From the sequence record NC_054909.1: a DNA stretch of 64,000 bases; one strand, 5' to 3'. The translations under genes were made by a program, and so were the position numbers. The DNA is from Escherichia phage EC121. The notes under the pieces are model-generated. The model searched no databases. It was not told the origin of the DNA and saw nothing but the letters and a program-made list of their open reading frames with translations. Each line of letters begins with the position of its first letter. The stretch's first letter is position 1. Positions 1,271 through 60,914 of the stretch are shown piece after piece.

Positions 1271-1740
1271 TCAGTGATAAAGTTATTTAAATTTTGAGTA
1301 TATTTCTTTTCATCAAAAATCTTTTGCTGCCTACGTAACCGCCATGGCATTTCAATGAACACGCACCATATTCCTGATAGTACTGCTGCTGTAAAAATAT
1401 TAACAAGTATAATTAAAAGAATCCAATCTTCCGTTCTGCCTACTGGACTTTCTCCAAAGAAGCAAAATACAAATGATGTCACAGGAAAACTAATAATATA
1501 CCACAGAATAACCTTCTTATCTGTGAACCAATCAGCGTTCGTTAACTTAGCACGACCATTTTGAATACACACGAATTTATCATCTGTTACAGTAGATGGC
1601 TTAACTGCTTGATATCCCATTCTAAACTCCCTAATTAATCGTTTCTTTGTATCTTCAGAACAGCCGCTCCAGTCAACTCTATCGACTGAAATGCCATCGT
1701 CCCCATCATCTAAATCATACCAGCGAGTTTTTAAAATCAT
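1252..1740 (-). CDS. Small membrane protein (hydrophobic helices), C-terminal ...NNFITECRKLK
   Basis: 162-aa ORF, ATG at 1740; stop overlaps nudE start; member of a 4-ORF tandem array with a shared C-terminal/junction motif. Confidence 0.55.
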   Translation of the reverse strand: MILKTRWYDLDDGDDGISVDRVDWSGCSEDTKKRLIREFRMGYQAVKPSTVTDDKFVCIQNGRAKLTNADWFTDKKVILWYIISFPVTSFVFCFFGESPVGRTEDWILLIILVNIFTAAVLSGIWCVFIEMPWRLRRQQKIFDEKKYTQNLNNFITECRKLK

Positions 1741-2111
1741 TTGATTTTCCTACAATCATTCACGAATTCTTTCATTGATTCATTTTCAATATAAGACATG
1801 TAGTTATTATATTCTTTTAATTGTATTTTGTAATCCTTTTTTCTTTGCCAATTTATTTTAAAATTATCATAATGAAAATATAAAATGATACTAAAGAATG
1901 AAAATAATGAAATTGCTATAGTATAATGAAGTTCACTCCAAACTTCTATTATATCTACTATACCGCTGACGTTACTGCGGATGTTTAAAATAATACAGTC
2001 AATCATTAATCCAATAAGACTACCAGCAAGAGCTGCAGCCAACGCCACAGCAAAAATTAAAAATGACTCAGAAAAAGAATATTTGACTTTATTTAGTTTT
2101 GGCTTTTGCAT
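1737..2111 (-). CDS. Small membrane protein (2 predicted TM helices), C-terminal ...KEFVNDCRKIK
   Basis: 124-aa ORF, ATG at 2111..2109 with SD AAGGAA 5 nt upstream; stop overlaps the next start (ATGA). Confidence 0.6.
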   Translation of the reverse strand: MQKPKLNKVKYSFSESFLIFAVALAAALAGSLIGLMIDCIILNIRSNVSGIVDIIEVWSELHYTIAISLFSFFSIILYFHYDNFKINWQRKKDYKIQLKEYNNYMSYIENESMKEFVNDCRKIK

Positions 2112-2485
2112 CGTGATTCCTTAACAAATTTCATAATTTCATTAAATTCATACATATTTAGTTTAAGCTGGTGTTCCTTTTTAATCTTTTTACACTGAGC
2201 TTTCCATTCGCGTACGCGTTTACGATAATGTCTTCCTTGATACCAGTATCCTACCCAATTTACAGGTACTAATAAAAGTGGAACTATTAATGGAAGAATT
2301 AGCATTAACACAAGTATTTCGCCAGAATCAATATCAGTCATAACATCTAAAACACCTCCAATAATCAATAGAATTACAAATGATATAAGTATAACAGGAC
2401 CTATTAATACATCAGTAGAAATTATCTGACGCTTTAATTCATACTTCAAAGGTTTACTTGGAAGGTATAGTGATGGCTTTGACAT
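2093..2485 (-). CDS. Small membrane protein (2 predicted TM helices), C-terminal ...MKFVKESRCKSQN
   Basis: Track start at 2506 is TTG; first ATG is 2485..2483 (MSKPSLY...), used here; hydrophobic stretches ILISFVILLIIGGVL and LVLMLILPLIVPLLLV. Confidence 0.5.
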   Translation of the reverse strand: MSKPSLYLPSKPLKYELKRQIISTDVLIGPVILISFVILLIIGGVLDVMTDIDSGEILVLMLILPLIVPLLLVPVNWVGYWYQGRHYRKRVREWKAQCKKIKKEHQLKLNMYEFNEIMKFVKESRCKSQN

Positions 2486-3062
2486 ATTCTCTACATTCCT
2501 TAACAAATTTTTCTAGTAATAAATCGCTTTCAAAATTGGGATTTTCCACTAATTTATCAAAAAGATCATCAACAATAGTCAAAATATTCTTTTTACTAAG
2601 AATACGCTTATTTTCATGCTTCGTTTCAGAATCAACTATAAGAGTAAAGAAATATTTCTTTCCCTGAAATTTTACCGTAGTATCAATATAGAATAAATTT
2701 GACTTTTGTAAATTACGTTTAAACCATGCGTCACTTAAACTATAAACACCGAGATAATCAAAATCGTCGTTTAAATAACAAACTGACCATTCAGGAGAAA
2801 TGAAATCAGTAAATTCAACATCAAAATCACATGTCAATGAATAAATTGATTCAATATTGTTAATAAGTATTCCAGGACGTATTAAAGACTTTTTACCTCT
2901 AGAAAATCTTCCAGAAAGACTTTCATCAGTTTCATATGAAGAACCCCAATAATAATTACGTCCTTCTGCCATACGTTTAAGAGCATTTAATAATTGGTCT
3001 GGAACATCAACTTGTCTTTGGAATTCTTCAAACATTGAATTGAAATCACTTTGCATTTTCAT
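2454..3062 (-). CDS. Hypothetical protein, C-terminal ...EKFVKECREYVKAITIPSK
   Basis: 202-aa ORF, ATG at 3062; no hydrophobic segments; 3' end overlaps the next gene start and carries the same junction motif. Confidence 0.6.
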   Translation of the reverse strand: MKMQSDFNSMFEEFQRQVDVPDQLLNALKRMAEGRNYYWGSSYETDESLSGRFSRGKKSLIRPGILINNIESIYSLTCDFDVEFTDFISPEWSVCYLNDDFDYLGVYSLSDAWFKRNLQKSNLFYIDTTVKFQGKKYFFTLIVDSETKHENKRILSKKNILTIVDDLFDKLVENPNFESDLLLEKFVKECREYVKAITIPSK

Positions 3063-3082
3063 TCCTATTTACTCCAAGTAAT

Positions 3083-3098
3083 AGGGGCCGAAGCCCCT
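3083..3098. terminator. GC hairpin AGGGGC-CGAA-GCCCCT between two minus-strand genes
   Basis: Perfect 6-bp stem with CGAA loop, T-run on the plus side; resembles the intergenic hairpins at 41315, 42904 and 56144. Confidence 0.35.
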
Positions 3099-3104
3099 TT
3101 ATCA

Positions 3105-3698
3105 TTATTTCAGAGAATTAATGTATTCCTGAACATCAGCAGAGGTAGTTTCAACCCCAGAAATATTGCCATTAAAGGTTTCAACTCGGGCAAGAGTATC
3201 TTCAATATCAACCTTAGTCAGCGCTGCAATTTCAACTACATCATCAGCAGTACTAATTCCGAGGGCATTCGCGGCGCGAGTTTCACGGATATATTCCAAT
3301 TTAACTGCAAGTTCTTGGCGAGCATCATCTAACTCAACTACTTTCTTGGCGATTTCAATTCGCATTTCAGCATAACCATCAGCTTTAGTAGTCAACTGCT
3401 CAGCTGTTCGACGATATAGTAAACCAAGTTTAGCATGCATTGTTACATCTTGACCTTCCGAAAGAAGCTTGCGAATTTCACGCTCTTTTGATTCGGCCTG
3501 CTTATTCTTTTCGACAATAAGTTCACGAATACGTTTTTCTTCATTAATAGATTTAATAGAAGCAGTTTTTAGATCTTTAATTTTATCAAGTAGTTTTGCT
3601 GCTGCGGCAGTATACTGTTCTTCAACAGATAGATTTTTAGCCATAGCAGAACCAAGTTTAGTGCGAATAAACTCAACAATTTTCTTCAGTGTGTTCAT
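3105..3698 (-). CDS. Hypothetical coiled-coil protein
   Basis: 197-aa ORF, ATG at 3698 with SD AAGGAAA; heptad-rich charged sequence ([27 protein letters not shown]...). Confidence 0.6.
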
Positions 3699-3775
3699 AG
3701 TATTTCCTTAGGTTGATTAAGATTTAAAATCCGTGAGAGTATTAGTATTATACTCTATCTTCAAGTTATGGGCTC

Positions 3776-3805
3776 ATAATATCTCAATCATGAGCCTATG
3801 TAAAC
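3776..3805 (-). promoter_or_regulatory. T4-type early promoter (GTTTAC-N18-TATTAT) with stem-loop GGCTCAT/ATGAGCC around the -10
   Basis: rc: GTTTACATAGGCTCATGATTGAGATATTATGAGCC; lies upstream of the 3105..3698 ORF. Confidence 0.45.
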
Positions 3806-4069
3806 TTATTTCATATTATTGAAATATTCTTCTGCGATTTCGTCGTTATCATGGTAAACTTTAGAAGACAATTTAACATAACCTTCAGCAGTGAACATGT
3901 TAATCACAACCTTTACAGTATACCACTGACCGTCTTCATTGCCCATTACCGCATAAGTTTCAAACATCGGATGATCAGGACCGATAACTTTAATATCATT
4001 CACTGTACGACCGAAATCTTCTGAAACACATTTCATAAAGAAGTTGAACAGTTCGCCGTAATTATCCAT
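3806..4069 (-). CDS. Hypothetical protein
   Basis: Track ORF starts at a TTG (4081); first ATG at 4069..4067 (MDNYGELF...) has SD GGAG 7 nt upstream. Confidence 0.5.
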   Translation of the reverse strand: MDNYGELFNFFMKCVSEDFGRTVNDIKVIGPDHPMFETYAVMGNEDGQWYTVKVVINMFTAEGYVKLSSKVYHDNDEIAEEYFNNMK

Positions 4070-4112
4070 TTCGTTCTCCAAGTTGTTTTCTGTATCAGTA
4101 GTTGATAGTTGT

Positions 4113-4142
4113 ATAGTACCATGGAAGAACAGGGATGTAAAC
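4113..4142 (-). promoter_or_regulatory. T4-type early promoter (GTTTAC-N18-TACTAT)
   Basis: rc: GTTTACATCCCTGTTCTTCCATGGTACTAT, upstream of the 3806..4069 ORF. Confidence 0.45.
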
Positions 4143-4271
4143 AGTTTTGTGAAAAAATTTTTAAAAAGTTTTGGGGAATTCTAGGGCAGGGAGGGGAAAT
4201 CAAAGGATAGGATAATATATTATAAAGGGTAGAAACTAAATGATGTCTAGAGAGGCCTGGAAAGGCCTAGA

Positions 4272-4302
4272 TACCAAAAAGCCCCAACCTTTCGGCTGGG
4301 GC
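4272..4302 (-). terminator. Rho-independent terminator (minus strand)
   Basis: rc reads GCCCCAGCC-GAAA-GGTTGGGGC followed by TTTTT; immediately after the stop of the 4311..4784 ORF. Confidence 0.6.
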
Positions 4303-4310
4303 TAAGAATG

Positions 4311-4784
4311 TTATTTGATTTGTTTAGCAGACCAAATGCGGTCTTTAATAATTTTTTGGATGTCTTCAACATACCCAAGAGAGTGAGCATGTGGGTTATC
4401 TTTGAAACTATAAGCACGAGCCAGTTTTTGGCCTTCAGTTTTGATTACTAAAAGCTCTTTAAGAATAGCTTCATATTTGGAGATAATTCCTTTAACAATA
4501 TTTTTCTCTTGTGCGACTTTAGGATCTGCTTTAGGAGCAGGTTTACCTGAAGCCTTTGCAAAAGCAGCGCCAGTAGCAACTAAACTTTTCCAGGCCATAC
4601 TAACTGCATTTCCCGTAAATCCTTCCGCTTTCATGTCGCGTGCGAACTGGAATCGCGATTCATCAGAAGCATCTTTGTAAGAATATTTACCCGCTGCAAT
4701 GGCTGCTTTTGCGACAGCTTGAATTTCGGTGCTAGATGCTTCATTTAACACCGCTTCATTTAAAAATTGAGTATATGATTTCAT
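4311..4784 (-). CDS. Putative capsid-packaged internal protein (N-terminal capsid-targeting-sequence-like MKSYTQFLNE)
   Basis: 157-aa ORF, ATG at 4784 with SD AGGAAA; N-terminus resembles the T-even internal-protein CTS (MKTYQEF...) with an LNE site of the kind cut by the prohead protease; own late promoter and flanking terminators. Confidence 0.6.
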   Translation of the reverse strand: MKSYTQFLNEAVLNEASSTEIQAVAKAAIAAGKYSYKDASDESRFQFARDMKAEGFTGNAVSMAWKSLVATGAAFAKASGKPAPKADPKVAQEKNIVKGIISKYEAILKELLVIKTEGQKLARAYSFKDNPHAHSLGYVEDIQKIIKDRIWSAKQIK

Positions 4785-4824
4785 CTTATTTCCTGTTTTA
4801 ATTCGTGGTTTTAATATACTACTA

Positions 4825-4832
4825 TATTTATA
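4825..4832 (-). promoter_or_regulatory. T4 late promoter TATAAATA (minus strand)
   Basis: plus-strand tatttata at 4825..4832, about 40 nt upstream of the 4784 start codon. Confidence 0.5.
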
Positions 4833-4834
4833 CC

Positions 4835-4861
4835 AAAAAGCCCCAACCTTTCAGTCGGGGC
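4835..4861 (-). terminator. Rho-independent terminator (minus strand), near-copy of the 4272..4302 element
   Basis: rc: GCCCCGACT-GAAA-GGTTGGGGC + TTTTT; the 36-bp block ataccaaaaagccccaacctttc.g..ggggctaag occurs at 4271..4306 and 4829..4864. Confidence 0.6.
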
Positions 4862-4865
4862 TAAG

Positions 4866-5165
4866 CCTTGCGGCAACCTTGTCGGGGTTCCACCTGCTAA
4901 GGCAAGTGTTTGTACGAAACGCCGGGATTCGAACCCGGTTATTAAGCAGTTGACGCTACTCAATATTTTTAAAAGGCCATATCTCGACCATATCCGAACG
5001 TTCCGTCAAAAACGCTACTCGGTTTACGGCAAAGATATTTCCTCGAATCGATAATTCGGTGCGCCGTTTCTGCTGTGATAGTAAAGAGCCAGAACACAGT
5101 AAAACTGTGGGAGGAAACTATACTCCAGGGAACATCAGTCCGACGACTTACCGGTAGCGACCCGG
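4866..5165 (-). ncRNA. Putative small stable RNA region (T4 rnaC/rnaD-like position), boundaries not resolved
   Basis: ~300 bp with no ORF, between the tRNA cluster side and a terminator; contains a tRNA-like T-arm (rc ACCGGGTTCGAATCCCGGCG at ~4919..4938); T4 encodes two stable RNAs at the distal end of its tRNA cluster. Confidence 0.3.
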
Positions 5166-5169
5166 TTTC

Positions 5170-5520
5170 TTAGTATTCTTTTAAAGCATCAACCTGTTCA
5201 CGACGTTTACGCCATAAATCAATTACTTCATACGCAGATTCAGCATTTCGAATTGGACGGCATTTATATAAAGACTTGTGATTTTGATATTGTGTAGATA
5301 ACGGAATTTTATCTAAAAGGTCTTTACGTTCAAAATATTCGTAACCATCTAAACCAAATGAACGATTTTTGAGAAATTGCCAATGACCAAATTCGTTTTC
5401 GACATAAACATAATCTGCATGCTGATAAAGCAAATTAATTACACGTTCAGAAATAACAGTATCATTATGATTAAAATAGAATGTTAAATCATGAACTACT
5501 AAATAAACATTACCTTTCAT
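5170..5520 (-). CDS. Hypothetical protein embedded in the tRNA/small-RNA cluster
   Basis: 116-aa ORF, ATG at 5520 with SD GAGGAAAA; no recognisable motif (not GIY-YIG). Confidence 0.55.
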   Translation of the reverse strand: MKGNVYLVVHDLTFYFNHNDTVISERVINLLYQHADYVYVENEFGHWQFLKNRSFGLDGYEYFERKDLLDKIPLSTQYQNHKSLYKCRPIRNAESAYEVIDLWRKRREQVDALKEY

Positions 5521-5538
5521 ATTTTCCTCACTTATAAT

Positions 5539-5614
5539 TGGTCGAGGCAGTAGGGATCGAACCTACGACCCAGGACTTAGAAGGTCCTTGCTCTTCCTTC
5601 TGAGCTATGCCCCG
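5539..5614 (-). tRNA. tRNA-Arg (anticodon TCT)
   Basis: Hand-folded cloverleaf, anticodon arm AGGAC-CTTCTAA-GTCCT, T-arm GTAGG-TTCGATC-CCTAC, CCA encoded. Confidence 0.8.
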
Positions 5615-5618
5615 TAAT

Positions 5619-5694
5619 TGGGGTGACCGATGGGAGTCGAACCCATGACTACGAGAATCACAATCTCGAGTTCTACCAACTGAACTACGGCCAC
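5619..5694 (-). tRNA. tRNA-His (anticodon GTG)
   Basis: GTGGCCGTAGTTCAGTTGGTAGAAC-T-CGAGA-TTGTGAT-TCTCG...CCCATCGGTCAC-C-CCA; anticodon loop and C73 as in bacterial tRNA-His; no G at -1. Confidence 0.7.
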
Positions 5695-5808
5695 ATTAAT
5701 ACCTACTCCAACAATCATGATGTCTTCACACGAAATTAAGAGAAGAGTGATCAGTTCAACCCCTATAATCGCGTCAAGTAGATATTAATGTGACAGTTGT
5801 CACAAATT

Positions 5809-5883
5809 TGGCGGACGTGATAGGATTCGAACCTATAACCAATCGCTTAACAGGCGATCGCTCTGCCATTGAGCTACACATCC
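5809..5883 (-). tRNA. tRNA-Asn (anticodon GTT)
   Basis: GGATGTGTAGCTCAATGGCAGAGC-G-ATCGC-CTGTTAA-GCGAT...; acceptor and T stems pair, CCA encoded. Confidence 0.75.
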
Positions 5884-5887
5884 AAAT

Positions 5888-5974
5888 TGGTGGGGAGTGA
5901 TGGAGTCGAACCACCCGAGTCGCAATGACAATGAATTTACAGTCCACACCGCTACCTCTACGGGATAACTCCCC
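5888..5974 (-). tRNA. tRNA-Tyr (anticodon GTA), class II with long variable arm
   Basis: Anticodon arm GTGGA-CTGTAAA-TTCAT (two G-U pairs), variable-arm hairpin GTC-ATTGC-GAC, T-arm GGTGG-TTCGACT-CCATC, acceptor GGGGAGT/ACTCCCC, CCA encoded. Confidence 0.6.
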
Positions 5975-5981
5975 CTTAATT

Positions 5982-6056
5982 TGGTGGCCCTGGGTGGAAT
6001 TGAACCACCATCTGGCGATTATGAGTCGCTTGCTTGAACCTTCCAGCTACAGGGCC
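5982..6056 (-). tRNA. tRNA with CAT anticodon (T4 tRNA-Ile type)
   Basis: GGCCCTG acceptor, anticodon arm AGCGA-CTCATAA-TCGCC, T-arm GGTGG-TTCAATT-CCACC, CCA encoded. Confidence 0.75.
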
Positions 6057-6057
6057 T

Positions 6058-6133
6058 TGGTGCTGATTGACGGAATCGAACCGCCGACATCCTCATTACA
6101 AGTGAGGTGCTCTACCTACTGAGCTAAATCAGC
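6058..6133 (-). tRNA. tRNA-Thr (anticodon TGT)
   Basis: GCTGATTTAGCTCAGTAGGTAGAGC-A-CCTCA-CTTGTAA-TGAGG...TCAATCAGCACCA. Confidence 0.8.
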
Positions 6134-6138
6134 AAAAC

Positions 6139-6228
6139 TGGCGGAGGCGATAGGATTTGAACCTATGAGTCGCCGGAGCGACTGCCGGTTTTCAAGACCG
6201 GTGCATTAAACCACTCTGCCACGCCTCC
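6139..6228 (-). tRNA. tRNA-Ser (anticodon TGA), class II
   Basis: Anticodon arm CCGGT-CTTGAAA-ACCGG, long variable arm, acceptor GGAGGCG/CGCCTCC. Confidence 0.75.
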
Positions 6229-6230
6229 AG

Positions 6231-6304
6231 TCTCCATACAAGGATTTGAACCTACGACATTCTGCTCCCAAAGCAGACGCTCTACCAAACTGAGCTACAC
6301 GGAG
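6231..6304 (-). tRNA. tRNA-Pro (anticodon TGG), CCA not encoded
   Basis: Acceptor CTCCGTG (C1:G72), anticodon arm TCTGC-TTTGGGA-GCAGA; T-stem pairs only 3 bp as I read it; separated from tRNA-Ser by 2 nt. Confidence 0.65.
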
Positions 6305-6314
6305 TAAATTAAAT

Positions 6315-6388
<74 letters not shown>

Positions 6389-6393
6389 AAATT

Positions 6394-6480
6394 TGGTGCG
6401 AGAAGTGGGACTCGAACCCACAAGGAAATAATTCCGCAGCATTTTAAGTGCTGTGCCTTTACCAATTTGACCATTCTCGC
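6394..6480 (-). tRNA. tRNA-Leu (anticodon TAA), class II
   Basis: Acceptor GCGAGAA/TTCTCGC, anticodon arm CAGCA-CTTAAAA-TGCTG, variable-arm hairpin GGAA/TTCC, CCA encoded. Confidence 0.75.
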
Positions 6481-6481
6481 G

Positions 6482-6554
6482 CTGGGAATAAAGGACTCGA
6501 ACCTTTGCATCTAGCAGTCAAAGTGCTATGCCTTACCAACTTGGCTAATTCCCA
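6482..6554 (-). tRNA. tRNA-Gln (anticodon TTG), CCA not encoded
   Basis: Acceptor TGGGAAT/ATTCCCA, anticodon arm TAGCA-CTTTGAC-TGCTA, T-arm AAAGG-TTCGAGT-CCTTT. Confidence 0.75.
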
Positions 6555-6651
6555 ATTATTAACAAAGGCTCTCTAACAAGAACCCTTGATGATAGAGGGT
6601 ATTAATCAGTGCGGTATGAGTTAATAATAACAAATAATTCTTAAAGCATAT

Positions 6652-6939
6652 TTACCATTTATGATAATACATATTTACGATGCATTCAAGGCCCAAAGGA
6701 TTCTTGAAAATATCATATTCAAGAGGACCTTTTTCTGTTTCAATAAAGAAATCAAAATTTACTGTATTAAATTTACGGTCTTCCTTCACTAATTTAACTT
6801 GAGAAGATGAACGGTCAACATAAACCTTTTCAACTTCAAAACATGTTAAAACGCCATAATCATCAATCAAGGCTTTAGCTGCTTCTTGATCATATTTATA
6901 TCCATTTTCAATGGATGATACTTTCGCATAAAGAATCAT
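6652..6939 (-). CDS. Hypothetical protein
   Basis: 95-aa ORF, ATG at 6939, SD AAAGG; tightly packed with neighbours. Confidence 0.55.
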   Translation of the reverse strand: MILYAKVSSIENGYKYDQEAAKALIDDYGVLTCFEVEKVYVDRSSSQVKLVKEDRKFNTVNFDFFIETEKGPLEYDIFKNPLGLECIVNMYYHKW

Positions 6940-6941
6940 TA

Positions 6942-7346
6942 TTAACCTTTATCAACAATAGTATGTGTATGGGCATTTACGATTTGCCACCAGTCAAAAC
7001 TATCGCCAAATCGTTTTGATTTATTGTCTTCAATAATTTGGCGTAATTCATCTTCTGTTTCAGCATACGCAATCAAATCATCATATCCACCGCAAGGATA
7101 GTAATTATCGCCTGCGAACAAAAGAAAATTTACTTTAGATGGGTCTACATAATAATGCTCTTTAGGATATTTAGTTCCTTTCCAATCAGTTACTTCAACA
7201 TAACAATAAGAAAATCCATTTTTACTTTCAACCCAACTCCACGCTTCAAAAGGAGTATTAAAAACTCTATCAGGTATTAAATTACCTTCAAAATGAGAAG
7301 GATTTGCATAATCCCCAGCATAAACATAATATTCGTTAATATTCAT
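6942..7346 (-). CDS. Hypothetical protein
   Basis: 134-aa ORF, ATG at 7346, SD AAAGGTGA. Confidence 0.6.
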   Translation of the reverse strand: MNINEYYVYAGDYANPSHFEGNLIPDRVFNTPFEAWSWVESKNGFSYCYVEVTDWKGTKYPKEHYYVDPSKVNFLLFAGDNYYPCGGYDDLIAYAETEDELRQIIEDNKSKRFGDSFDWWQIVNAHTHTIVDKG

Positions 7347-56139: not shown

Positions 56140-56143
56140 CAAT

Positions 56144-56165
56144 GGGGACCGAAAGGTCCCCATAT
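56144..56165. terminator. Bidirectional terminator between gene 54 and the convergent minus-strand ORFs
   Basis: GGGGACC-GAAA-GGTCCCC hairpin. Confidence 0.6.
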
Positions 56166-56167
56166 TT

Positions 56168-56458
56168 TTATTTACGGAATGAAATGAAAGCAGCAACTGA
56201 AGCAACTAAACTGTCTTCAATATAAACTTCAATTTTTACCGGAGCTTCTGACTCAAATTTACCTGTTACTACACCTTGGAAAATGCTTTCAGTCTGTTCT
56301 GGCTTTGAAAAATTTTCAGAAGGAAAAATTCCGAACTTTTTATCTGTTCCAAAAATTTTGATAAATTCATCATAAACTGCTTCATTAAAAGCGTTATCAG
56401 CAGGAATAACGCCTTCAACTACAAGTTCTTGACCTAAAAAGCGTAAAGAAGATTTCAT
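56168..56458 (-). CDS. Hypothetical protein
   Basis: 96-aa ORF, ATG at 56458, SD GAGGAA; own early promoter. Confidence 0.6.
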   Translation of the reverse strand: MKSSLRFLGQELVVEGVIPADNAFNEAVYDEFIKIFGTDKKFGIFPSENFSKPEQTESIFQGVVTGKFESEAPVKIEVYIEDSLVASVAAFISFRK

Positions 56459-56489: not shown

Positions 56490-56519
56490 ACTATAACACA
56501 ACACGAGGGACTTGTAAAC
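56490..56519 (-). promoter_or_regulatory. T4-type early promoter (GTTTAC-N18-TATAGT)
   Basis: rc: GTTTACAAGTCCCTCGTGTTGTGTTATAGT. Confidence 0.45.
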
Positions 56520-58576
56520 TACATTTTGAACTTTTTAGACATTCCGTTGATGTTAACCAAAGAAGCTAAGATTTGAGAAACTTCGTTTTCCTCTTCTTTT
56601 GATTCTTCTACAAGGAATTGATTAAATCCAGCCATTGGACGAACTTCACCAGTTTCCATTAGATGGTCGCCATCATATACTGATTCTTCTAATTGTTCAG
56701 AAGGAGGAACGATTGTGCCTTCAATTAGATACTTGTTATAAGCAGTTTCTTTCATCATGTACGTGCTTACTTTATTAATCTTCAACAAAATTCCACGCGG
56801 TAGAATAACTTCAGCTTCTGATGGAAATCCTGATAAATGACCTGGAACGATAACTTTAATTCGCTCAGCTCCTTTTATTACCATACCCACGCTAGTTTCA
56901 GCATCTTCATTAGCATATGCGGAATGACTACCCATATGCATTAAATCTTCGGCATCAACAGAACCTTCTCCTTCACCAGAAAATACTGCGCCGGAATCAT
57001 CTAGAGCCATATAGTTTTTACCATGCTCACCGAAGATATTTGGTTTAAGCGATGTTGATACGAAGTTCTTGAAATAGAACATTTTATTTTCAATATTATG
57101 GCGTAAAGTTTTAAAAGTAACTTCTTGTCCACGATAAAGCGTAGTTCCCGGAGGAAGAACTGATCCTTTGGCGAATGCAGAATCCAACGTCTCGATGTGT
57201 TTAATAGCTCGTTCCATGTATTCTTCACGGGTAGAATCTGGTTTACCCAAGAGGAACGAGTTCATTTCAACATATGAATCTGCACAATAATCTTCAATTA
57301 CATCAGACTCAGCCTGAGTCAGTCCTTTTGGAGTTACTTCGGTGCTTGCGTATTCATATGCCTGAGCAGCAGATTCATTAATCAATTTATAAATGCCATT
57401 CATGACAAATTGAATAATAGCTACCTTTTCGTCTGGTGTGGCTTTAGAACCTTTAACTAAATCATTGATAATTTTCTTAATAACATCAAAGCTATTAGAA
57501 ATATTAATGTCAGCGAGATCGCTCAAAATTTTATCGGTTTTATAATCAAAAAATTCTTTATTCTTTAAATATTCTTGAGAACCTTGATGTGTTATATCGC
57601 TCTGCAGTCTGATAGACGGATCACGTAAACGTGCATGGGCCAATGCAATATGATTTCGGAAGCTTTCTAGTTCATAATCGTTAGATTTAAAACGAGAAGC
57701 ACTTCTCATACCACCGATAGCTCCTTTGCCGAAGTTTGAACCAATCTGAATAACGCCAGAGTTCATTGGTCCTTCTGCTTTATATACAGGAACTTTAGAT
57801 TCAAACTCTTGATATTTCTTGGCAGCGAAGCTATCACCCTGAAGTGAAGCATCGACAGTAGAATATTGAGCTTGCGCTGCTAATCGACGACTAATTTTAG
57901 TTTTCTGAATAACAGCTTGATCCGTGCGCTTATCATTTTCTAAAGCAATAGAAGCAGCAACAGCAACAGCTTTAGGAACAGCATTACCTGTTTTAACATC
58001 TACATAAACATCACCAACCTTTGATTCAACTTTTGTGAATAACTCAGTTGAAATAGGAGGTACGCCTGGAATGTCTTCTAAATTGGCATTTTTACGGTAA
58101 ACCATAATATATGCATACTTTTTATCATAATCCCAGATTTCCTTTAAAAGAACATATCGACCTGCTCCTTTAGTACGTACTAAACGATCAGCAATAACTT
58201 GCATTTGACGAGCTGCGCCATTTGTTTTACTTTTTAGTACGCGGAATAGGCATGCGTCAATTTTATACTGTTTCATTGTTTGAAGAGCAGTATCAAAAAC
58301 CGCATTAATGACACCAATTGGATTTCCACCCAAGTTTTTAAGTTTAACTAATGATAGTTTCTCATTAACACCTATCATTACGATATGCATCATTTTATCG
58401 CCTGGCTTAACGTTTTTATTTGTATCACCACCAGAGGTGTATGTACAAAATCTAAATCCAGGAAGCACACTTTCTTCGCCGGCTTGAATAGCAAAAATTT
58501 GAGGTATTTTATGCTTAGGATTTAAGTTAACAACCGGCGCCGAAGCGCCGTCAAATAATTCTGTAATAAGTTCCAT
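56519..58576 (-). CDS. Alt-family ADP-ribosyltransferase, second paralogue
   Basis: 685 aa; N-terminal 60 aa and C-terminal ART motifs (YRGQ, FVSTSL, EAEVILPRG) shared with the upstream alt; central region diverged; ATG 3 nt after the alt stop. Confidence 0.85.
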   Translation of the reverse strand: MELITELFDGASAPVVNLNPKHKIPQIFAIQAGEESVLPGFRFCTYTSGGDTNKNVKPGDKMMHIVMIGVNEKLSLVKLKNLGGNPIGVINAVFDTALQTMKQYKIDACLFRVLKSKTNGAARQMQVIADRLVRTKGAGRYVLLKEIWDYDKKYAYIMVYRKNANLEDIPGVPPISTELFTKVESKVGDVYVDVKTGNAVPKAVAVAASIALENDKRTDQAVIQKTKISRRLAAQAQYSTVDASLQGDSFAAKKYQEFESKVPVYKAEGPMNSGVIQIGSNFGKGAIGGMRSASRFKSNDYELESFRNHIALAHARLRDPSIRLQSDITHQGSQEYLKNKEFFDYKTDKILSDLADINISNSFDVIKKIINDLVKGSKATPDEKVAIIQFVMNGIYKLINESAAQAYEYASTEVTPKGLTQAESDVIEDYCADSYVEMNSFLLGKPDSTREEYMERAIKHIETLDSAFAKGSVLPPGTTLYRGQEVTFKTLRHNIENKMFYFKNFVSTSLKPNIFGEHGKNYMALDDSGAVFSGEGEGSVDAEDLMHMGSHSAYANEDAETSVGMVIKGAERIKVIVPGHLSGFPSEAEVILPRGILLKINKVSTYMMKETAYNKYLIEGTIVPPSEQLEESVYDGDHLMETGEVRPMAGFNQFLVEESKEEENEVSQILASLVNINGMSKKFKM

Positions 58577-58579
58577 GAT

Positions 58580-60673
58580 TTATCCTTGAACGAACTTGTA
58601 AGGCATGTTTGTAATATCTATGCAAGACGCAATAATTCCAAGAGATGATTCTACTTTTTGTTTAACATTTGATGAAACAAATGATGCAAAGTCAACTCTG
58701 TCTTCTATTTCAATATCACCTGTCATTGCAACTACTTCACCAGTTTCCATTAGACGGTCACCGTCATAAATTACTGATTCGGTGAGTTCTTCCGTAGTCA
58801 TAACTTCAGCTTGAATGAGTTTTGTATTATTAGATGTTGTTCCGTCATTATTAGAAGCATCAGTTATTTTATTAACTTTGACCATCAATCCGCGTGGTAG
58901 AATAACTTCAGCTTCTGTTGCTATTCCGAGACTTCCTGGATATACAACATTAACTTTATGAGCTCCATCAATTGCCCATCCTATTTGAACTTTAACGTAT
59001 TCAGGATTTTCTTTATACGCTCTTATTTCGTTTGGATTAATAGTTATTCCTTCTTCATTTTTATCAACTGTTAATTCATTACGAGCTTCTGGTTCTAAAA
59101 GACCAATACCAGCATGTGTAATTCCAAAACGTCCAAAAATGATAGGAGTTAAAGAAGTAGATACAAAATTTCTGAAATAGAATACTTTATTTTTAACTAG
59201 TGCTTCGTATATAGGAGCAGTCATACTTTGAGCACGATAAACTGTAATGCCTTCTGGTATACGGTCACCATTTTCAAAAGCTGAATCTAAGTTATTTATA
59301 GCAGATTCAATTTCTTTTTCACTCATTACATCATATCGTTCTGGATTGTAGCGTCCTAAAAGAAGATTATTGATGTCAGTATATCCTGAACCGCAATACT
59401 CTCTAATGCCGCGCTTTTGTGATGGAGTATATTTAGAACCATCACGGGCAATAGTAATATCAATCATTGGACCTGCACCAATTCCAGAAAAGCTATAAAT
59501 CATTCGTTTGAGGAATTTAGTTTTTGCTGCGTTCCAGGAATTTTTAGTTATTTCTTCCCAGACTTCATCTGGCTGTCCTTTACGGGTTTTATTATGTTTA
59601 TCAAGCCAATTATCTTTATATTCTTCAAAGAGTTGATTAACAGCTGCTGCGTATTTCTCCAAACATTTTATTGAAGTAGTTGGTTCATTTTTAATCGCAT
59701 TAAGAATTACATCTTTAATCTTTTCAGAAACTTCATTAACCTCACTTTTTGAAAAGAATTTATAGTCATAATGAAGTTCATCTGCAGTTCCTTCAGCAAT
59801 AATTTTTGCTGCCTTAGTTTTAGAAGCTAATGAATTAATTCCAAGCTTCATTTCTTCTGCTTCGGGAATTAAAGGAGCTGTAGCAGGTTTATTGAAATTA
59901 GCTGCGGTAGATTCATACTTCTGGAATAATTCACTTTCAAATCTAGAAGATTCTAATGATTGACTTTGTGCAATTGCTCTACGGGAAATTTTAACTTTAA
60001 CGATTACAGCTTGGTCAGAACGTTTATCGTTTTCTTGCGCAATAGATGCTGCAATTGCCTCATTTTTAGTTACTTGAGCTCCGGTATCTTTATTGATATA
60101 AACATCACCGACCTTCGATTCAACTTTAGTAAAGAGCTCGGTACTAATTTCTGGAACTCCTGGAATGTCTTCTAGTGATACATTTTTACGATGTATAAGA
60201 ATATATGCATACTTTTTATCGTAATCCCAGAGTTCCTTAAGAAGGACGTATCTGCCACCTGAACGACTACGGATAAGTCTATCAGCAATAACTTGAATTT
60301 GTCGAGCTTGGCCAGCAGTTTTAGACTTAAGAATACGAAGCATACAAGCATCAATTTTATATTGACGCATTGTTTGCATTGCAACAGTAAAAACTGAATT
60401 GATATAATTAATTGGGCTTGGACCAAGACCTTTTAATTTAGCAATTGAACCTTTAGCAGTTAATGTAAAAGGAACAATGTGCATCATTTTGTCGCCCATT
60501 TTTAAATCGCGATTAGTATCACCTCCAGATGTATATGTACATAAACGAAAGCCTGGTTGTTCAATTGCATCATCAACATGAACTGAAAAAATTTGTGGTA
60601 TTTTCTTCTTTGGATTTAAGTTTGTAATCGGAAGAGTAGTATCTTCGTCAAATAATTCTGTAATAAGTTCCAT
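58580..60673 (-). CDS. alt: Alt, capsid-packaged ADP-ribosyltransferase
   Basis: MELITELFDEDTTLPITNL... as I recall T4 Alt; motifs YRAQ, FVSTSL, EAEVILPRG; track starts one Met earlier (60676). Confidence 0.9.
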   Translation of the reverse strand: MELITELFDEDTTLPITNLNPKKKIPQIFSVHVDDAIEQPGFRLCTYTSGGDTNRDLKMGDKMMHIVPFTLTAKGSIAKLKGLGPSPINYINSVFTVAMQTMRQYKIDACMLRILKSKTAGQARQIQVIADRLIRSRSGGRYVLLKELWDYDKKYAYILIHRKNVSLEDIPGVPEISTELFTKVESKVGDVYINKDTGAQVTKNEAIAASIAQENDKRSDQAVIVKVKISRRAIAQSQSLESSRFESELFQKYESTAANFNKPATAPLIPEAEEMKLGINSLASKTKAAKIIAEGTADELHYDYKFFSKSEVNEVSEKIKDVILNAIKNEPTTSIKCLEKYAAAVNQLFEEYKDNWLDKHNKTRKGQPDEVWEEITKNSWNAAKTKFLKRMIYSFSGIGAGPMIDITIARDGSKYTPSQKRGIREYCGSGYTDINNLLLGRYNPERYDVMSEKEIESAINNLDSAFENGDRIPEGITVYRAQSMTAPIYEALVKNKVFYFRNFVSTSLTPIIFGRFGITHAGIGLLEPEARNELTVDKNEEGITINPNEIRAYKENPEYVKVQIGWAIDGAHKVNVVYPGSLGIATEAEVILPRGLMVKVNKITDASNNDGTTSNNTKLIQAEVMTTEELTESVIYDGDRLMETGEVVAMTGDIEIEDRVDFASFVSSNVKQKVESSLGIIASCIDITNMPYKFVQG

Positions 60674-60696
60674 CATAGCCTCTCTAGTGTTTATTC

Positions 60697-60704
60697 TATT
60701 TATA
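60697..60704 (-). promoter_or_regulatory. T4 late promoter TATAAATA for alt
   Basis: plus-strand tatttata, 24 nt upstream of the alt ATG. Confidence 0.55.
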
Positions 60705-60725
60705 AAATTAAAGGCCCGAAGGCCT

Positions 60726-60914
60726 TTAGTAATCTAGTGGTAAGAGAGTACGATATATTTCAAACTTTGGTCCTTTTTCATAGGCATCAAATGTTTCTGT
60801 AAATTTATTGTAAGCATATGCATCTACAAATTCGAGAATGACTTGTGATACAGAAGTAGAAACATCTCCACCTTCTTTTTGAGCAATGACAATTGTTTCT
60901 AAGTAAGCTTTCAT
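60726..60914 (-). CDS. Hypothetical protein
   Basis: 62-aa ORF, start overlaps the gene 30 stop. Confidence 0.5.
   Translation of the reverse strand: MKAYLETIVIAQKEGGDVSTSVSQVILEFVDAYAYNKFTETFDAYEKGPKFEIYRTLLPLDY

Follow-up and report, generated by a model that had tools for sequence, protein, structure and literature searches.

Alt of phage T4 is an NAD+--arginine ADP-ribosyltransferase (ART) that acts on RNA polymerase alpha and other host proteins. About 40 copies of it are carried per head and injected (PMC9026906). It is cut by the gp21 prohead protease at ITE-6 and LTE-619 to a mature form of 68.2 kDa, as seen by mass spectrometry (PMC5694885; PMC9026906), and has a 6-residue N-terminal and a 63-residue C-terminal propeptide (PMC5694885). 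Mutation of the glutamate of its Glu-x-Glu (ExE) motif inactivates the enzyme (PMC11404850). In this study we analysed a 64,000-nucleotide stretch of Escherichia phage EC121 (NC_054909.1), referred to below as the window, in which the alt locus contains two large genes in tandem: A1, the counterpart of T4 alt, and A2, the gene directly downstream of it.

T4 ModA and ModB belong to the same arginine-serine-glutamate (R-S-E) clade of ARTs as Alt and are also phage-encoded modifiers of host proteins (PMC5512222). By their description they are set apart from Alt as small, early-expressed and unpackaged enzymes that lack the Alt N-terminal domain and the propeptides. The R-S-E toxins (Vis, iota Ia, CdtA, CPILE-a, VIP2 and C3) differ from Alt in that Alt adds a phage-specific N-terminal domain of ~240 residues, a helical domain of ~170 residues and a cleavable C-terminal tail. 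The route of delivery is different as well, being ejection from the phage head for Alt and secretion for the C3-like and binary toxins. In Alt proteins ~78-80 residues lie between the Ser-Thr-Ser (STS) motif and ExE; in the structures of C3 and iota Ia this distance is roughly 36-38 residues.

The two-gene locus is already known, being standard and annotated in T2, T6 and the majority of Tequatroviruses. T4 alt.-1/alt.-2 and ORF187c of phage 44RR were noted as alt duplications by Nolan et al. 2006 (PMC1524935), and a duplication of Alt was listed in Ac42, JS98 and Bp7 by Jin et al. 2014 (PMC4177764). The alt/alt.-2 genes of T2 (MH751506), T6 (MH550421), RB32 and ime09 represent the same locus as that of the window and differ from it in nothing of substance. 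A2 is named alt.-2 in T6, RB32 and ime09, and altb in Dhakavirus IME08.

Two Alt-family genes in tandem

Comparison of the open reading frames (ORFs) of the window with T4 identified a Tequatrovirus (T-even) segment with T4-like gene order around the alt locus. The plus-strand genes 29, 48 and 54 are followed on the minus strand by alt.-3, the two large ORFs, alt.1, gene 30 (DNA ligase) and 30.1-30.3. Thus, A1 and A2 are situated between gene 30/alt.1 and alt.-3/gene 54 and run opposite to the baseplate genes, which is the position of the Alt family. The two genes and their parts are as follows.

58580..60673, minus strand: A1, the alt orthologue in its T2/T6-type allele, 697 residues (ORF, homology, Pfam, PHROG)
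59960..60673, minus strand: A1 N-terminal alpha/beta domain, residues 1-238, PF26846 Tevenvirinae_ADPRT, with the ITE-6 gp21 cleavage motif (alignment, AlphaFold2 secondary structure)
58799..59431, minus strand: A1 ART catalytic domain, residues ~415-625, with R480, S505-T-S507 and E587-A-E589
58583..58777, minus strand: A1 predicted C-terminal propeptide, residues 633-697, after LTE-632 (aligned to T4 LTE-619)
56519..58576, minus strand: A2, the second full-length Alt paralogue, 685 residues (ORF, BLASTP, Pfam, PHROG)
57863..58576, minus strand: A2 N-terminal domain, residues 1-238, whose first ~116 codons match T4 alt.-1/alt.-2
57332..57862, minus strand: A2 middle domain, all-helical, residues 239-415
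56702..57331, minus strand: A2 ART catalytic domain, residues 416-625, with R482, S507-T-S509 and E587-A-E589
56522..56683, minus strand: A2 predicted C-terminal propeptide, residues 632-685, beginning past LEE-631; the model shows it as disordered

An earlier reading made from the letters of the window (hereafter the sequence-only reading) had described two tandem Alt-family genes, and the profile searches agreed with it. PF03496 (ADP-ribosyltransferase exoenzyme) was matched by A1 with 129.2 bits and by A2 with 72.7 bits at a cutoff of 23.4, and phrog_802, the Alt PHROG, was matched end to end with 906 and 852 bits, respectively. The two proteins were 41% identical over their full length (BLASTP, E = 9e-158), which places their paralogy far above chance. 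PF26846 (Tevenvirinae_ADPRT) is precomputed for every full-length homologue and for P0001, a protein with 99% identity to A2; our direct Pfam scan of A1 and A2 at E ≤ 0.01 returned PF03496 alone and not PF26846. A scan of both proteins against NCBIfam gave no family, and a search of BFVD returned Alt or ART proteins only. The sequence search of PDB gave no match for A2 and only weak ones for A1 (E about 5e-4), to the helical lobe of CdtA and iota Ia, and no solved Alt structure turned up in it. The AlphaFold models (predicted local distance difference test (pLDDT) score of 75 for A1 and 77 for A2) had the same layout in both proteins: an alpha/beta N-terminal domain to residue ~195 with helices to ~238, an all-helical middle, the ART domain and a disordered C-terminal tail. 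The ART fold of the Alt family was also recovered. As judged by profiles and alignments, A1 and A2 are full-length Alt-family ARTs.

The motifs that the sequence-only reading had pointed out were all present and in register: YRAQ at residues 479-482, STS (within FVSTSL) at 505-507 and EAEVILPRG at 587-595 in A1, and YRGQ at 481-484, STS at 507-509 and EAEVILPRG at 587-595 in A2. It had also called both genes catalytically intact. When the triad was checked in alignments of 17 and 18 family members, Arg, Ser-Thr-Ser and Glu-x-Glu showed no variation and aligned in register with those of T4 Alt, which is what an intact catalytic site in both proteins predicts.

The similarity between A1 and A2 was unevenly distributed. 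The N-terminal block (residues 1-238) was 68% identical, the middle (239-415) ~17-18%, the catalytic region (416-600) 37-38% and the C-terminal tail (601-685) 39%; in the stretch from STS to ExE 6-8 of 40 residues were identical per alignment block. The suggestion that the first ~60 residues are almost identical did not hold, since only 37 of these 60 residues (~62%) are shared, concentrated in the patches MELITELFD, CTYTSGGDTN and GDKMMHIV; the conserved block instead extends to about residue 238. Similarly, the picture of a diverged centre between conserved ends was right about the middle, whereas outside its motifs the catalytic domain reached only 37% identity and the tail 39%.

Strong purifying selection acts on A1 and A2 alike. 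Compared with T6, A1 contained 60 synonymous and 5 non-synonymous differences, giving a ratio of non-synonymous to synonymous rates (dN/dS) of 0.02, and A2 contained 74 and 13, giving a dN/dS of 0.04.

Distribution of the two-gene locus and the state of T4

The 4.85-kb region was 97-98% identical in 343 phage records that covered at least 80% of it, and many of these were annotated "Alt-like RNA polymerase ADP-ribosyltransferase (x2)". A1 was 99.3% identical to Alt of T6 and 98.7% identical to Alt of T2. For A2, identity was at least 95% in 395 records, and about 400 contained it at full length with at least 90% identity.

T4 is different. Its alt.-1 and alt.-2 (NP_049810 and NP_049809; T4 stretch 1066-1451) aligned nearly base by base with the initial ~348 nucleotides of A2. 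The PHROG families that apparently match these 61- and 67-residue fragments were hit by A2 with 138 and 131 bits and by A1 with 78 and 70 bits. Two lesions account for the T4 state: a deletion of 1,699 bp, the junction of which is a 9-nucleotide repeat, CTAAAAAGT, that occurs twice in intact A2, and the loss of one A from an A-run (AAATAAAAAC to AAATAAAAC), a -1 frameshift that splits the frame. The two copies of the repeat in the window are:

58229..58237, minus strand: 9-nucleotide direct repeat CTAAAAAGT, copy 1, A2 codons ~114-116, bounding the T4 deletion upstream
56530..56538, minus strand: 9-nucleotide direct repeat CTAAAAAGT, copy 2, within the final A2 codons, bounding the T4 deletion downstream

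Of 484 related records, 91 gave an uninterrupted match to a 101-nucleotide probe placed across the T4 deletion junction; in all others the match was split. Since the T4 junction is intact in so few of them, the two-gene state is the common one and T4 represents the minority. The alignments identify T4 alt.-1/alt.-2 as a decayed A2 rather than a partial duplication, which is opposite to the T4 annotation, "an old duplication of the first part of gene alt". The T6 record speaks of an "apparent insertion in alt.-2"; in our reading the direction is reversed, and a deletion in T4 is favoured because the junction falls exactly on the flanking 9-nucleotide repeat, because T4 also carries the frameshift, and because full-length orthologues are found in another genus. 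We regard the window as showing the two-gene alt locus that is ancestral in T-even phages, in the T2/T6 state and not the T4 state.

Modularity of the Alt proteins

A1 is the positional orthologue of T4 Alt (NP_049811). Residues 1-240 of the two proteins are 100% identical and the last ~80 residues 90-95%, and they have the late-promoter region, the R/STS/ExE residues and the ITE-6 and LTE motifs in common. However, the middle is only 32% identical and the ART domain 62-66%, so that A1 represents another allele, common to T2 and T6, with sharp block boundaries at the DNA level. A2 is 42% identical to T4 Alt overall.

The same tandem pair occurs as AltA and AltB in Dhakavirus IME08 (HM071924) and in JS98/JS10-type phages, in the same context and with the same stop-3 nt-ATG junction and Shine-Dalgarno (SD) sequence. 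Between A1 and AltA the N-terminal domain was 46% identical, the middle 66% and the ART domain 96%; between A2 and AltB the corresponding values were 46%, 45% and 58%. Within IME08, AltA and AltB were 66% identical in the N-terminal domain, 12% in the middle and 39% in the ART domain. Thus, N-terminal domains showed 66-68% identity within a genome and 42-47% across the genera Tequatrovirus and Dhakavirus, and in Aeromonas phage 44RR2.8t they showed 55% within the genome versus 32-44% across genera. By these alignments the payloads (middle plus ART domain) are orthologous across genera, A1 with AltA and A2 with AltB, and the N-terminal domains follow the genome. At the DNA level, the payload of A1 (58743-59993, minus strand) was 81% identical to alta of IME08 (4175-5425 of the retrieved stretch), and the adjoining N-terminal domain DNA was too diverged for blastn. 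The likeness of the A1 payload to AltA points to cassette exchange or to deep allelic lineages at the alt locus.

Natural recombinants were also found. A 65-kb Logan contig (SRR24155011) carries a gene at 5001-7055 that combines an A1-type N-terminal domain (94% identity) with an A2 payload (97-99%). No other Alt gene lies between alt.1 and alt.-3 in this contig, and a deletion through recombination between the two N-terminal domain sequences is therefore implied. A second metagenomic contig contains a similar hybrid gene (5001-7061); the N-terminal domains of the hybrids span 94-98% identity to A1. The N-terminal domain of homologue P0003, which is 92% identical to that of A2 and 76% to that of A1, looks like the product of partial conversion. 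Moreover, Alt of Acinetobacter phage ZZ1 is split into a 229-residue N part and a 463-residue ART part (PMC4177764). Together, the cross-genus identities, the natural hybrids and the split ZZ1 gene support the view of a shared N-terminal module joined to exchangeable payloads. Three consecutive ART genes are present in 44RR2.8t (1558-6426), namely ORF188c (319 residues, ART domain only, ExE present), ORF187c (639 residues) and alt (642 residues), and expansion of the alt locus therefore recurs across Straboviridae.

Processing motifs

The mass that we computed for residues 7-619 of T4 Alt was 68.2 kDa, and since this equals the published value, our residue numbering agrees with that of PMC5694885. 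The published name of the catalytically dead ExE glutamate mutant is E577A (PMC11404850); in the T4 RefSeq Alt (NC_000866 stretch, 1455-3503) we counted the ExE glutamates at E574/E576, offset from the published number.

ITE-6 is kept in both A1 and A2, and the aligned C-terminal LxE is LTE-632 in A1 and LEE-631 in A2, all of these being motifs only. The predicted mature proteins would be 70.1 kDa (A1) and 69.1 kDa (A2). The model of A2 was disordered from residue 630, exactly at the LEE-631 site, and that of A1 had pLDDT below 50 from residue 652. The proposal that the N-terminal ~60 residues contain the packaging and processing region of T4 Alt was only partly right, as the documented propeptides comprise 6 residues at the N-terminus and 63 at the C-terminus. 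As both ITE-6 and the C-terminal LxE are kept, the processing information resides at both termini and not in an N-terminal block of 60 residues.

Proposed function and alternative readings

In the reading that we find most likely, and in which we have moderate confidence, phage EC121 injects two ARTs that would differ in specificity, as the sequence-only reading had supposed. Each would be a four-part protein, consisting of a genome-specific alpha/beta N-terminal domain with a 6-residue propeptide, a helical middle, an ART domain of the C3/iota-type (a predicted R-S-E arginine mono-ADP-ribosyltransferase with ExE) and a disordered C-terminal propeptide. Both proteins would enter the prohead core, where gp21 would trim them at ITE-6 and at the C-terminal LxE, and they would then be injected with the DNA and ADP-ribosylate arginines of host proteins. 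The shared N-terminal domain may represent a common delivery or assembly module. The payloads most likely act on different substrates, because their lineages are old, separately conserved and most different between STS and ExE.

A wider reading combines these elements: A2 would be a second head-packaged, injected arginine ART with host targets distinct from those of Alt, possibly serving counter-defence or take-over, and the Alts would be modular delivery vehicles, in which gene conversion, or co-evolution with the head core, keeps the N-terminal modules of one genome matched, and the payload cassettes are separate and exchanged between genera. We hold this fuller version only tentatively, as it seems to us about evenly balanced and slightly on the doubtful side. 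Several points count against the proposal. A2 is dispensable, as the deletion is carried by T4 and by 91 of 484 related records, and truncated forms are present among the homologues (P0006, P0008 and P0010). The distinct target specificity is deduced from sequence divergence alone, the head-targeting role of the N-terminal domain is our own suggestion, and the likeness of N-terminal domains within a genome could result from gene conversion and not from shared functional constraint. In addition, a full-text search of the literature gave no experimental study of A2 (virion proteomics or targets), only genomic mentions of the duplication.

Alternatively, A2 might be functional and packaged but redundant with A1, modifying the same substrates (e.g., RNA polymerase alpha) as an extra dose or as a back-up with a divergent surface, by which it would escape a host factor that recognises or inhibits one of the paralogues. 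The same catalytic motifs, including the ExE of the arginine type, and the same architecture in both proteins agree with this, as do the loss of A2 without obvious cost in the fully viable T4 and the non-essential nature of Alt itself (PMC9026906). However, the two payload lineages have been separate since before the split of Tequatrovirus and Dhakavirus, each gene is kept by strong purifying selection, and the middle (~17%) and the STS-ExE segment (6-8 of 40 per block) have diverged far past what simple redundancy would need, so that we consider redundancy unlikely. It is also conceivable that A2 is made late and not injected, acting in the producing cell or mainly as a structural or assembly part of the prohead core with catalysis being secondary; no promoter is visible for it other than the late one ahead of A1, and Alt, besides being an enzyme, has been called a protein of the head core (PMC11404850). 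We rate this as quite improbable: both gp21 cleavage motifs are kept at the T4 Alt positions, the N-terminal domain shares 68% identity with its counterpart in the packaged paralogue, and the invariant catalytic residues are under purifying selection.

The frameshifted and truncated stub that is all T4 has left, together with several truncated homologues, could suggest that A2 is a functionless decaying duplicate, a pseudogene in the making. Its ORF of 685 codons is nevertheless unbroken, about 395 records contain it with an identity of 95% or more, none of the catalytic and processing motifs is damaged, an orthologue is kept in another genus and dN/dS versus T6 is 0.04; decay is thus hardly credible. 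As a neutral pseudogene A2 is effectively refuted by this dN/dS, the values of 0.02 for A1 and 0.04 for A2 against T6 excluding it.

For genome annotation these observations are of small importance, the locus being standard and already annotated. What is known of injected phage ARTs comes nearly all from T4, which is in the minority state without the second enzyme. In the majority state there are two intact, strongly conserved and co-located enzymes with a common, putative delivery domain, whose payloads have been apart since before the Tequatrovirus/Dhakavirus split. If the proposal is true, work based on T4 misses some of the effectors that T-even phages inject, since T4 has lost A2. The natural domain-swap variants could serve as material for mapping the head-targeting determinant of Alt.

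Translation and transcription of A1 and A2

The signals at the starts of the two genes are:

60709..60728, minus strand: terminator-like intrinsic hairpin (TAAAGGCCTTCGGGCCTTTA plus T-run), closing the upstream alt.1/gene 30 unit (terminator scan and sequence)
60697..60704, minus strand: late promoter box of T4 type, TATAAATA, 20 nucleotides upstream of the A1 start region
60679..60684, minus strand: A1 SD sequence GAGAGG (sequence)
58583..58587, minus strand: A2 SD sequence AAGGA, within the last two sense codons of A1

A1 opens with ATGATG, which gives 698 residues from the first ATG (58580..60676) and 697 from the second (60673). GAGAGG is spaced 2 nucleotides from the first ATG and 5 from the second, and T4 Alt begins with MELITE; because of the 5-nucleotide spacing and the T4 N-terminus, the start of A1 is likely at 60673, the coordinate that the sequence-only reading had also given.

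The junction between the genes reads TAA-ATC-ATG, with the stop of A1 at 58582..58580, then ATC, and the start codon of A2 at 58576..58574, and AAGGA lies 6 nucleotides ahead of this ATG. This is as the sequence-only reading had it, namely with the ATG of A2 3 nucleotides past the stop and the SD within the last codons of A1. The arrangement of stop, 3 nucleotides, ATG and SD (CAAGGRTAAATMATGGAA) is kept in T4, T6 and Dhakavirus IME08. A stable structure masking the A2 SD was not found in the 90-nucleotide junction (-9.5 kcal/mol, z = +0.87 versus shuffles). The geometry would permit re-initiation; however, because no stable RNA structure sequesters the SD, independent initiation of A2 is as possible as strict translational coupling. 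In our proposal, A2 would be translated off its own SD.

Exact matches to TATAAATA occurred 24 times in the window versus 9.3 expected. Upstream of A1 the hairpin (60728..60709) is directly followed by this box (60704..60697), in a region that is 96% identical to that upstream of alt in T4. Between the two genes the terminator scan gave no terminator-like site in the coding orientation, and for this reason A1 and A2 are likely co-transcribed. Late transcription would start from the TATAAATA upstream of A1, run through both genes as one message and end at the hairpin past alt.-3.

The late box nearest to the start of A2 lies 717 nucleotides upstream, within A1. This second exact TATAAATA is at 59300..59293 on the minus strand, around codon 458. 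T4 late promoters require little beyond this box. The internal copy, a conceivable promoter dedicated to A2, is probably fortuitous, and it is probably not conserved in T4, because the overlapped codons appear to differ there (AINNLD versus AIDNLD, from the protein alignment).

Neighbouring features

Two further features lie downstream of A2:

56168..56458, minus strand: alt.-3, 96 residues, DUF5498, phrog_1739, the next gene downstream of A2
56142..56163, both strands: bidirectional terminator-like hairpin that separates alt.-3 from gene 54, the nearest such site downstream of A1/A2

T4 Alt.-3 mutants that are extended at the C-terminus escape the CmdTAC defence system via blocked degradation of CmdA (PMC11618068). 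In the 60-nucleotide gap between the stop of A2 and the start of alt.-3 we observed a sigma-70-like site (56490-56518, minus strand) with TTTACA, a 17-nucleotide spacer and a TG-extended TATAGT, matching at 10 of 12 positions. Because of this site, alt.-3 may have its own early-type promoter besides read-through from the alt genes. On the other side of the locus, alt.1 (60726-60914, minus strand, 62 residues) matched PF24647 (Phage_blade) with 102 bits and ends in the hairpin that precedes the alt late promoter.

Elsewhere in the window, at 5539-6554 on the minus strand, 11 tRNA genes are clustered: Arg, His, Asn, Tyr, Met(CAT), Thr, Ser, Pro, Gly, Leu and Gln. T4 has eight tRNA genes, and the set of phage EC121 is thus larger.

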